Of a DNA stretch of 30,563 bases, positions 18,199 to 22,224 are shown piece by piece. Below the pieces are notes generated by a model that saw only the letters and a list, made by a program, of their open reading frames with translations, made no database searches and had not been told where the DNA came from. The DNA comes from Gammaproteobacteria bacterium (GTDB taxonomy: Bacteria > Pseudomonadota > Gammaproteobacteria > Burkholderiales > SG8-39), in the NCBI GenBank assembly GCA_041486325.1, contig JBGPLD010000001.1, positions 1 through 30,563 on the forward strand, given 5' to 3'. A program made the translations under genes and the position numbers. Every line of letters begins with the position of its first letter. Position 1 is the stretch's first letter.

Positions 18199-18639
18199 GT
18201 GAGAAGCTTGGCGGCCGCGTTGATCGGCGCAACCCTGTTCGCGTCGGGCGGCGCCTGCGCACAGACGCCGGTGACGACACTTTCGGCCGGCATCCACCTG
18301 ATTCGCGCCGAAGTGGCATTCACGTCCGAGTCCCGGGCCCAAGGACTCATGTTCCGCCGGTCGCTTGGCCCCAGCGAGGGCATGCTGTTCGTGTTTCCGC
18401 AATCCGAAGTCCACTGCATGTGGATGAGGAATACCCTTATCCCGCTCTCGGTTGCTTTCATCGACGAGAAGGGGAAAATCGTCAGCATTTCAGACATGCA
18501 GCCCCGGACGGAGACTTCTCATTGCGCTGCGGACCGGGCCAAGTACGCACTGGAAATGGAGCGCGGCTGGTTCGCGAAAAAGGGCATCGCGGCCGGCGCA
18601 AGCATCGCGGGCCTGGATAAGACGCCGGCGGCGCGCTAG
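18199..18639 (+). CDS. DUF192 family exported protein
   Basis: Signal peptide; AEVA.T..SRAQGLMFR, GMLFVF, MWMRNTLIPLSVAFID, YALEMERGWF; GTG start. Confidence 0.85.
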   Translation: MRSLAAALIGATLFASGGACAQTPVTTLSAGIHLIRAEVAFTSESRAQGLMFRRSLGPSEGMLFVFPQSEVHCMWMRNTLIPLSVAFIDEKGKIVSISDMQPRTETSHCAADRAKYALEMERGWFAKKGIAAGASIAGLDKTPAAR

Positions 18640-19319: not shown

Positions 19320-19499
19320 GGTAGGTCTCCCGTTGATCGCGGCCCGCCACCCGGCGGCCCGCGTCATTCTCTGTCCAAAGCGAGTCCGATTGCAAGCACA
19401 GACATTCAAACCTTTGCGCCGCGATGGGGCTTGCAGGCGCTCCGCCGGGTCCTATTGTCCACATGCACGAAAAGTCCAGCCTGCGGCGAAGGCAAAGGC

Positions 19500-19855: not shown

Positions 19856-21211
19856 CTAGCGCGACCGTTCGACGCGAGCGGTGGCGCCGCCCTGCGCGAA
19901 AGTGATATCGACGGTTTCGCCGGCGATCAGGCTCGCCCCGCGCCGCACGATCCGGCCCGAGGCGTCCCGGACCACGCTGTAGCCGCGATCGAGGACCGCG
20001 GCGGGATCGAGATGTGAGAGGCTCTCGCCAAGGCGCGCGTAGTGGGCGGTGGCGCGTTCGATTCCCGCGCTTGCAGCTGTGCGCAGGCGCGCGAGCAATT
20101 GCGTCGACCTTTCCGACAGGTCGCCAATGTTGGGTATCCGCGCGCGGCTGCGCTGTACCAACTCGCCGAGCTTCCAGTACCGCTCCGAAAGGCCGCGAGT
20201 CGCGATTTGTGCGAGCCGAAGCCGCAGCTGGCCGAGCAGCTCGGCCTGGGCCTGCAGTCTTTCCCCCGGGTGCACAAGGCGCCGGCCGAGGTGATCGACG
20301 AGTTGCATGCGGCCTTCGAGTTCGCGTTTGACGCACAGGGCGAGACGCATCGCCAGCTCGCCGATGGCCGCGAGCAGCGCGGCGCGCTCGGGGCTGACCA
20401 GCTCGGCCGCGGCAGTCGGCGTGGGCGCGCGCCGGTCGGCGGCAAAGTCGGCGATAGTGAAATCCGTTTCGTGACCGATACCGGTCACCACCGGAATCGG
20501 GCAGGCGCGCAAGGCGCGCGCAATGCTTTCCTCGTTGAAGGCCCAAAGATCCTCAATGCTGCCGCCGCCGCGCACCATCAGCAGCACGTCGCAATCGCCG
20601 CGCCTCCCGGCAAGCTCGAGCGCGGCGGTGATTTTATCGGCCGCACCTTCGCCCTGGACCGGCACCGGGTAGACGATCACGGCAATCGAAGGATTGCGGC
20701 GGTGTAGAGTGGTGAGCACATCGCGCAGCGCCGCAGCCTGTAGGGACGTGATTACCCCGATCACGCGGGGGAATGCGGGCAGGGCGCGTTTTTTTGCGGC
20801 GTCGAACAGTCCTTCTTTATCGAGCTTTTCGCGCAACCTGAGAAAAGCCTCGAACAACGCGCCGAGGCCGGCGCGCCGCATGGTTTCGACATTGAGCTGG
20901 AGGTCGCCGCGCGGCTCGTAGAGTGTCACGAGCGCCCTCGCCTCCACATTCATGCCGTCGCGCGGTACCCAGTCCAGATATTGGTGCCGGTGGCGGAACA
21001 TGACGCAGCGCACCTGCGCCTGCGGGTCCTTCAAGACGAAATAAGCGTGCCCGGACTTGGCAAGAGTGAGATTGGAGATCTCGCCGCAGACCCAGAGCAG
21101 CGGATATCGGTGCTCGAGCAGGTCGCGAATACCCCGGGTCAGCGCCGAAACTGTAAGAATTTCAGAGGGAAGGGGCCCGGGAACCCGCGCCAGTTCTTGT
21201 TCTTGTGGCAT
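19856..21211 (-). CDS. xseA: Exodeoxyribonuclease VII large subunit
   Basis: LTVSAL, WVCGEISNL..SGHAYF.LKD, AALRDV, RGGGSIEDLWAFN, GIGHETDFTIADF.AD.RAPTPTAAAE, LDRGYS. Confidence 0.97.
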   Translation of the reverse strand: MPQEQELARVPGPLPSEILTVSALTRGIRDLLEHRYPLLWVCGEISNLTLAKSGHAYFVLKDPQAQVRCVMFRHRHQYLDWVPRDGMNVEARALVTLYEPRGDLQLNVETMRRAGLGALFEAFLRLREKLDKEGLFDAAKKRALPAFPRVIGVITSLQAAALRDVLTTLHRRNPSIAVIVYPVPVQGEGAADKITAALELAGRRGDCDVLLMVRGGGSIEDLWAFNEESIARALRACPIPVVTGIGHETDFTIADFAADRRAPTPTAAAELVSPERAALLAAIGELAMRLALCVKRELEGRMQLVDHLGRRLVHPGERLQAQAELLGQLRLRLAQIATRGLSERYWKLGELVQRSRARIPNIGDLSERSTQLLARLRTAASAGIERATAHYARLGESLSHLDPAAVLDRGYSVVRDASGRIVRRGASLIAGETVDITFAQGGATARVERSR

Positions 21212-21225
21212 GTTGCGAGTCTAAC

Positions 21226-21234
21226 CTATCCACA
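21226..21234 (+). promoter_or_regulatory. Outlying DnaA box (1 mismatch)
   Basis: CTATCCACA vs TTATCCACA, 14 bp upstream of the xseA start codon. Confidence 0.55.
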
Positions 21235-21294
21235 GTGCGATTCCGGCCGGTGGCGCACTATGAGCGGTTGAGGTGACGGCCGAAGGATTACACA

Positions 21295-21341
21295 TAAGCT
21301 GTTGAGAGAGAATAACAAAATCAGCAGATCAACTTTTGGTC
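21295..21341. promoter_or_regulatory. IHF-like and Fis-like sites next to the DnaA-box triad
   Basis: 21295-21307 minus strand TCTCAACAGCTTA (12/13 to WATCAANNNNTTR); 21327-21341 GATCAACTTTTGGTC fits the degenerate Fis pattern G-N2-YR-N5-YR-N2-C. Confidence 0.4.
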
Positions 21342-21392
21342 AGTTAGTAAAAAATCCTTTCGCGCGATTCACTTACGCTTTCTTTTTTTCAA

Positions 21393-21427
21393 GTATGCAC
21401 AACCTTATCCACAGTATTTGTGGATAA
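21393..21427. promoter_or_regulatory. DnaA-box triad (DARS-core-like architecture)
   Basis: GTATGCACA (21393-21401, 1 mismatch) -ACC- TTATCCACA (21405-21413, perfect) -GTATT- TGTGGATAA (21419-21427, perfect, inverted). Confidence 0.85.
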
Positions 21428-21527
21428 GGTTACGGACTAATTTGCGTGCTTCCTGCGCTGGATCTCAAATCCGCAAATTTTCAAGCGATTTGCAACTGAT
21501 CCGGACAATTTCTTTAAAATCTTCACC

Positions 21528-21556
21528 TTGCCGAAACCCCCGTCGCAGGCTAGAGT
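21528..21556 (+). promoter_or_regulatory. Sigma70 promoter of the exbB-exbD-lpxK-ycaR-kdsB cluster
   Basis: TTGCCG (21528-21533)-N17-TAGAGT (21551-21556), then GGAGAG RBS and TTG 21589. Confidence 0.65.
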
Positions 21557-21588
21557 GTGCGCGTTTTTTGTTCGACTGGAGAGCATCA

Positions 21589-22224
21589 TTGTTTGCCATC
21601 ATTCAGTCTGCGGGCTGGCCCATTTATTTCCTGCTTGCCGTGTCCATCACCGCCGTGGCGCTGATCATCGAGCGGTTCATTATTCTTCGCAAAGAGCGGA
21701 TCGTACCGAAAGGCCTGATCGAAAAGGTCGTAGCCGTCTACCACAAGCAGGGCATGAACGACGAGACACTGGCAAGGCTGGCACAGGATTCGCCCCTTGG
21801 CCAGGTACTGGCTGCCGGATTGCGCAATTCCGAGAGCTCGCGTGAAGTGATGAAGGACGCTATCGAGGAAGCCGGGAGCGCGGTCACACACGAACTCGAG
21901 CGTTTTCTGACGACGCTGGGCACCATTGCCATGATCAGCCCGCTGATGGGCCTTTTCGGCACCGTGGTCGGCATGATCGAGATTTTCGGCTCGCAGTCGC
22001 CCTCCGGAGCCAATCCCCTGCAGCTCGCGCACGGCATTTCGGTAGCGCTGTACAACACCGGGTTCGGCTTGGTGATCGCGATTCCAGCAACGATATTCTT
22101 CCGCTATTTTCGCGGAAAAGTCGAGGGGTTTGTGATCGAGATGGAGCAGCAGGCCGCGAAGCTGGTTGACGTCGTTCACGGTCAGCGCTTCGACTTTCAG
22201 CAACCAGCGCGAACGCAGGCATGA
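21589..22224 (+). CDS. exbB: MotA/TolQ/ExbB proton channel family protein
   Basis: Start moved to TTG 21589 (MFAIIQSAGWPI); LGTIAMISPLMGLFGTVVGMI, GISVALYNTGFGL.IAIP. Confidence 0.9.
   Translation: MFAIIQSAGWPIYFLLAVSITAVALIIERFIILRKERIVPKGLIEKVVAVYHKQGMNDETLARLAQDSPLGQVLAAGLRNSESSREVMKDAIEEAGSAVTHELERFLTTLGTIAMISPLMGLFGTVVGMIEIFGSQSPSGANPLQLAHGISVALYNTGFGLVIAIPATIFFRYFRGKVEGFVIEMEQQAAKLVDVVHGQRFDFQQPARTQA

Follow-up and report, generated by a model that had tools for sequence, protein, structure and literature searches.

In Escherichia coli, the DARS loci release ADP from ADP-DnaA; deletion of these loci delays initiation, and extra copies advance it. The datA locus has the opposite activity and inactivates DnaA by datA-dependent DnaA-ATP hydrolysis, together with IHF. 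In a DARS, box I and box II for DnaA have opposite orientations across a 5-bp space, and a head-to-head DnaA pair releases the ADP (Sugiyama et al., PMC6868365). Only 2 of 52 similarly arranged E. coli box pairs turned out to be DARS (Hansen and Atlung, PMC5835720). In DARS2, an IHF site lies between the core and a Fis site (PMC11724364). Tandem boxes 2 to 3 bp apart are a general form of stable DnaA site, including at promoters, and the 3-bp tandem double box is the standard DnaA site at the E. coli nrdA, polA, and purH promoters (Stringer et al. 2024, PMC11317965). In the searchable literature, control of the DnaA nucleotide state by DARS1, DARS2, and datA has been shown solely in E. coli. 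Sequence conservation of DARS and datA has been documented for eight close gammaproteobacterial relatives only (supplement of PMC4245941, which gives nine names including E. coli); a 2017 review refers loosely to “beta- or gamma-proteobacterial species,” but the primary data are all from gammaproteobacteria. A reading of the present DNA made from the sequence alone (here, the sequence-only reading) proposed a DARS analogue in a betaproteobacterium and knew of no earlier description of such a site in Betaproteobacteria. Our literature searches on DARS in Betaproteobacteria and on sites at xseA or priA likewise found nothing, although Fujimitsu 2009 might list betaproteobacterial candidates.

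The window, meaning the whole stretch of 30,563 nucleotides that was analyzed, is one contig (C1) of a metagenome-assembled genome (MAG) of which 1.69 Mb was recovered in 326 contigs (approximately 60% complete, 63.6% GC). Within it, xseA, with its ATG at position 21211 of the minus strand, and an exbB-like gene followed by exbD and lpxK are divergently transcribed from an intergenic gap of 377 bp (21212 to 21588). The GC content of this gap is 46%. The encoded XseA was approximately 50% identical to homologs from Sulfuritalea, Propionivibrio, and Rhodocyclaceae and 71% identical to that of one MAG among the public-genome matches listed. The dnaA gene of the source genome is on a separate contig (C114), consistent with its reported absence from the window. 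The features of the gap are given in Table 1.

Table 1. Genes and predicted sites in and around the xseA-exbB intergenic gap (coordinates are positions in the window)
Feature	Position	Strand	Basis or remarks
xseA (exonuclease VII large subunit)	19856-21211	-	Pfam Exonuc_VII_L, E = 6e-100
Distal (fourth) DnaA box, CTATCCACA	21226-21234	+	7 of 8 specified positions; oriented as boxes III and II
IHF-consensus site, WATCAANNNNTTR (minus-strand reading)	21295-21307	-	12 of 13 positions, equal to 8 of 9 specified positions
Fis-consensus 15-mer, GATCAACTTTTGGTC	21327-21341		6 of 6 specified positions of GNNYANNNNNTRNNC
Conserved block (A-tract and CCTT, then GATTCACTTA)	21350-21376		Genus alignment; between Fis-like site and box III
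DnaA box III, GTATGCACA	21393-21401	+	Tandem with box II, 3-bp gap
DnaA box II, TTATCCACA, perfect	21405-21413	+	Sequence match
DnaA box I, TGTGGATAA, perfect, inverted	21419-21427	-	Convergent with box II, 5-bp gap
Putative exbB promoter (TTGCCG, 17 nt, TAGAGT)	21528-21556	+	Conservation in genus alignment; read by eye
exbB-like gene (MotA/TolQ/ExbB family)	21589-22224	+	Pfam; followed by exbD and lpxK

The three proximal boxes form a triad with a 9-3-9-5-9 layout, exactly at the positions and in the orientations proposed for it (two tandem boxes 3 bp apart and an inverted box 5 bp farther on). Matches to TTATCCACA with no more than one mismatch numbered seven in the window, compared with 1.85 expected, and none of 100 shuffled sequences reached seven. 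Perfect DnaA boxes are few in the 1.69 Mb recovered (five in total), and two of these five form the box II/box I pair. Elsewhere in the window, lone one-mismatch boxes were found within coding sequence at 18419 to 18427 (minus strand) and 19455 to 19463 (plus strand); these are probably chance matches.

The E. coli DARS cores used for comparison were read from the NC_000913 sequence. The DARS1 core, in the bioD-uvrB gap (NC_000913.3, approximately 813,107 to 813,141), reads TTATCCACT, 5 bp, TGTGGATAA, 3 bp, TGTGTATTA, and the DARS2 core, in the gap before mutH, reads TTATCCCAG, 5 bp, TGTGGATAA, 3 bp, GGTGTAAGA. The 9-3-9-5-9 spacing that the sequence-only reading had given for DARS1 is thus the spacing found in the reference sequence, and DARS2 has the same geometry. 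In reverse complement, the window triad aligned with both cores without gaps, with identical box order, orientations, and 5-bp and 3-bp spacings. Box I faces box II over 5 bp, and box III has the orientation of box II and stands 3 bp from it. Like the DARS cores, the triad is chromosomal, noncoding, and apart from oriC, the last as judged from a complete relative (G029). As a positive control, the E. coli K-12 chromosome was searched with the pattern CACA-N3-TTATCCACA-N5-TGTGGATAA, allowing up to three mismatches. The matches were solely DARS1 and one site inside the DARS2 region; datA, oriC, and DnaA-regulated promoters were not retrieved with this pattern at this threshold. The second of these matches, the sole one in K-12 besides DARS1, is a triad-like site at NC_000913.3 positions 2,969,135 to 2,969,164 (L034, 3136 to 3165), which reads TTATTCACC, 5 bp, TGTGGATAG, 3 bp, TGTGAAGAA and lies approximately 300 bp from the DARS2 core.

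The likeness to DARS1 extends beyond the arrangement of three 9-mer boxes, with I and II convergent over 5 bp and III in tandem over 3 bp. Box II is the perfect and invariant box, with changes in boxes I and III tolerated in the module, and the whole is noncoding and upstream of a DNA repair gene, toward which the boxes run in the order I-II-III. There are also differences. DARS1 has no need for IHF or Fis, whereas the present locus carries an IHF site at a fixed position, a Fis-like site, and a distal DnaA box; the DnaA of the host lacks Gln208; and the locus belongs to another clade and adjoins other genes.

The divergent order of xseA and exbB is kept across the order and was found at 29 of the 30 relatives' loci recovered in an XseA homology search. 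At the exception (L030), exbB was undetected and the triad was nonetheless present. A scan of the xseA-exbB gaps, which had been suggested as a check on the spacing, recovered the triad with invariant 3-bp and 5-bp gaps in all 22 same-genus gaps and in all 7 gaps from other families. Box II was perfect in all 30 xseA-exbB gaps found by protein homology, and boxes I and III varied. With up to two mismatches allowed, the triad was present in 322 of 401 genomes of the order, compared with 0 of 401 for a reversed control pattern. When spacers of 0 to 12 bp were permitted between perfect convergent boxes (81 genomes), all 10 pairs found had a spacer of exactly 5 bp. The sequence of that spacer is not kept: the 34 aligned modules carry 31 distinct 5-nt spacers, and beyond the genus only the 9-mers are conserved. 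Spacing is therefore constrained across the order while spacer sequence is free, and the observed element is real, nonrandom, and ancient.

The source genome contains a second triad, on contig C284 (L076, positions 1228 to 1262), between hemE and priA and approximately 86 to 90 bp before priA. It reads TTATCCACA-CAG-TTACTCACA-CAATC-TGTGAGAAA, again in the 9-3-9-5-9 layout, with a distal TTATACACA box at −177 relative to box II and a weak IHF match. A CCTT motif stands 32 nt before box III in both the xseA and the priA modules of this genome. In complete relatives, the two conserved module sites are likewise the gaps upstream of xseA and priA, giving at least two modules per genome. The boxes run III-II-I toward priA, the reverse of their order toward xseA. 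A scan of public genomes with the exact pattern returned at least 120 loci (L088 to L207); among the 120 matches listed, 23 adjoin priA, 8 adjoin xseA, and 88 lie elsewhere. Taxa with exact triads among these matches included Xanthomonadales/Lysobacterales, Woeseiaceae, Chromatiales, Pseudomonas, Legionella, Nitrosomonas, Sulfuritalea, and Rhodocyclaceae.

Outside Betaproteobacteria, exact triads adjacent to priA were observed, among the matches listed, in Pseudoxanthomonas, Stenotrophomonas, Rhodanobacter, Luteimonas, Cycloclasticus, and Chromatiales-type MAGs. Family f10 carries a tandem duplication of the module before priA, with the two copies approximately 450 bp apart, and an enlarged xseA-exbB gap contains several module copies; copies in this family were located at positions 2950 and 3415 of L067, 2977 and 3413 of L072, 3036 to 3949 of L074, and 2985 and 3199 of L068.

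The accessory sites of the window, all three of which had been picked out in the sequence-only reading, were reproduced at the same positions: the fourth box, the IHF match at 12 of 13 positions, and the Fis-like 15-mer. All lie on the box III side of the core, in the outward order Fis-like site, IHF site, and distal box, with offsets from box II of −78, −110, and −179, respectively. The distal box is 15 nt upstream of the xseA start codon, the IHF site follows it after 60 nt and precedes box III by 85 nt, and the entire module measures 202 bp (21226 to 21427). Offsets were compared across families by anchoring 24 xseA-type and 10 priA-type modules on box II. The best IHF match fell at −107 to −112 in 22 of the 24 xseA-type modules and 8 of the 10 priA-type modules, and many xseA-type modules and 9 of 10 priA-type ones, drawn from several families, had a DnaA box on the same strand at −177 to −188. 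Of the 24 xseA-type modules, 10 had a perfect Fis-consensus match precisely at −78, and 4 of these were among the 7 recovered through XseA homology alone; the Fis-like block was strongly conserved in the genus alignment.

Compared with DARS2, which combines a core with IHF sites IBS1-2 and Fis sites FBS2-3 in the rppH/ygdT-mutH gap, the module has the same core geometry and likewise gathers a core and IHF- and Fis-type sites into a locus of approximately 200 to 260 bp. The layout of these accessory sites differs. In DARS2, the IHF site is on the box I side, at approximately 190 bp, whereas that of the module is 85 nt from box III, and the IHF site is not placed about equidistantly between core and Fis site, as the Fis-like site, at −78, falls inside the interval from the core to the IHF site at −110. 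The proposal of a DARS analogue is thus supported in part, by the core geometry, the conserved spacing, the fixed IHF and Fis-like sites, and the location away from the origin in complete relatives, and the accessory layout is not of the DARS2 type.

Proteins on which such a locus would draw were also sought. Hda is encoded in the source genome, and ADP-DnaA should therefore be produced. Genes for IHF and Fis were not recovered in the source genome, which is approximately 60% complete; IHF-alpha and a Fis homolog were found in G022, a genome of the same genus, and in three further families. In E. coli DnaA, Gln208 at the head-to-head interface is needed for the DARS-dependent release of ADP (PMC6868365). 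The DnaA of the source genome has Ser at the equivalent position; among five relatives that retain the triad, one has Gln, three have Arg, and one has Ala. DnaA residues Leu290, Arg285, Phe239, and Lys243 are conserved.

Positions 21226 to 21427 are best read as a putative noncoding control locus for DnaA and IHF, of the same class as DARS and datA and most probably DARS-like. The arrangement is best explained as a predicted platform of approximately 200 bp on which DnaA and IHF would assemble, in the class of the E. coli loci that switch the nucleotide state of DnaA. We tentatively propose that the module acts by DARS-type ADP release. In such a mechanism, DnaA would occupy the perfect box II and recruit protomers both to box III (head to tail, across the 3-bp gap) and to box I (head to head, across the 5-bp gap). 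The head-to-head pair would weaken the hold on ADP, and apo-DnaA would depart and rebind ATP. IHF at its site would bend the DNA and so bring DnaA on the distal box, together with any protein bound at the Fis-like site, against the core, which they would modulate. Observations that cut against a DARS function include the Ser in place of Gln208, the datA-like placement of the IHF site and distal box, the generic nature of the III-II pair, and the small share of similarly arranged E. coli box pairs that are DARS. The tandem III-II pair is indeed a generic DnaA site, and the inverted box I alone is specific to DARS.

In a possible, if rather doubtful, alternative, the module is an operator or titration site. 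It would bind DnaA tightly with no change in nucleotide state and either couple transcription of xseA/exbB and priA to DnaA or buffer DnaA. The III-II pair resembles the double boxes of the nrdA, polA, and purH promoters in its 3-bp tandem arrangement, in an often AAG or GAG spacer, and in a G after the box; the full triad pattern, with its third, inverted box at 5 bp, retrieves none of these promoters and no other DnaA-regulated promoter in E. coli. The position of the distal box just before the xseA start and of the second copy approximately 90 bp before priA makes a transcriptional role plausible, both neighbors are replication or repair genes, and DARS1 itself is described in one account as affecting uvrB transcription (PMC6015884). 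Against this alternative, the putative exbB −35 and −10 elements, conserved in the genus alignment, lie approximately 100 bp past box I. A scan of the xseA-exbB gap for the sigma-70 consensus reported no promoter. An xseA promoter near box III or near an ACTTA block was considered and rejected, as the spacer lengths were wrong. The orientation of the triad to the neighboring gene also differs between the xseA and priA loci. Moreover, a fixed 200-bp architecture that includes an IHF site stands before unrelated genes, and most of the matches listed are in contexts other than xseA and priA; such an architecture exceeds the needs of an operator.

The scaffold of the module resembles the inactivating locus datA, as its core resembles the reactivating DARS. 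As read here, datA (in the glyVXY-queG gap) consists of box 7-gag-box 2, 56 nt, the IHF site, 84 nt, box 3, 3 bp, and inverted box 4. An IHF site between same-strand boxes is thus common to both, with the same order and site orientations, with distances of 56 and 84 nt in datA compared with 60 and 85 nt in the window and 59 and 84 nt in priA-type modules (offsets that are fixed across families), and with a proximal cluster that ends in an inverted box. The sizes also agree, as the minimal datA locus spans 200 bp (PMC11724364, Fig. 1E legend). On these grounds, the module might, like datA, inactivate DnaA and so lower initiation potential, with an IHF bend joining ATP-DnaA on the distal and proximal boxes for ATP hydrolysis. 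In one family, moreover, the priA module lies approximately 100 to 160 kb from dnaA, as datA lies near oriC. Such a function is nevertheless unlikely. In datA, the proximal boxes converge as a pair separated by 3 bp, whereas in the module a tandem pair is joined to a 5-bp convergent pair; the distal site of the module is a single box rather than the double box (7 and 2) of datA; the triad pattern retrieves the DARS loci of E. coli and not datA; and chromosomal position is not conserved. A hybrid, possibly ancestral element that joins a datA scaffold (60/85 nt) to a DARS head-to-head core is an improbable reading as well. If it were true, datA and DARS of E. coli would be specialized descendants of one IHF-dependent device, and the xseA and priA copies would share the work of switching DnaA between off and on, or each would act at its own time in the cell cycle, when it is replicated.

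It is very improbable that the xseA-exbB site is a replication origin or a second origin, as clustered DnaA boxes and an IHF site in an AT-rich gap might suggest. Modules occur at least twice per genome, dnaA is elsewhere, and a search of the gap for the repeated AT-rich 13-mers of an origin found none. GC skew, which had been proposed as a means of locating oriC, was sampled on the complete, one-contig relative G029 (L210 to L229), the source genome being in 326 contigs. The skew changed sign at 1.65 to 1.81 Mb (origin) and at approximately 3.45 Mb (terminus), and the xseA and priA modules, at 2.59 and 0.14 Mb, are approximately 0.86 and 1.6 Mb distant from the origin switch. The dnaA gene of this relative is at 1.28 Mb and thus seemingly approximately 0.4 Mb from the origin according to the sampled skew. 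In a further genome (G093), the xseA module is approximately 1.4 Mb from dnaA. The priA modules lie approximately 92 kb from that gene, in a region whose noisy skew does not allow their placement relative to the switch.

It is scarcely credible that the site is an accidental palindrome, a hairpin in RNA or DNA, or an operator bound by some other dimeric regulator, as a perfect inverted repeat (13 bp, 5-nt loop) could suggest: beyond the genus only the 9-mers are kept, box III and the distal box also match the DnaA box, a search of Rfam gave no credible match (16.8 bits against a threshold of 111.8), and changes in box I are uncompensated in box II in 30 of 34 modules, which argues for selection on protein sites rather than on a hairpin and led to rejection of the latter.

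A DARS-like locus thus stands as the preferred reading, and new here are the E. coli specificity control, the exclusive 5-bp spacing, the match to the datA scaffold, the Gln208 result, and the placement by GC skew. The exact DARS core geometry is kept across most of a betaproteobacterial order, twice per genome. [quoted passage not shown] Because the triad core is laid out as are the E. coli sites that recharge DnaA, Betaproteobacteria may time replication likewise, with a device so far known from E. coli and its close relatives, and the generality of DNA-catalyzed DnaA recycling would become directly testable in cultivable species.
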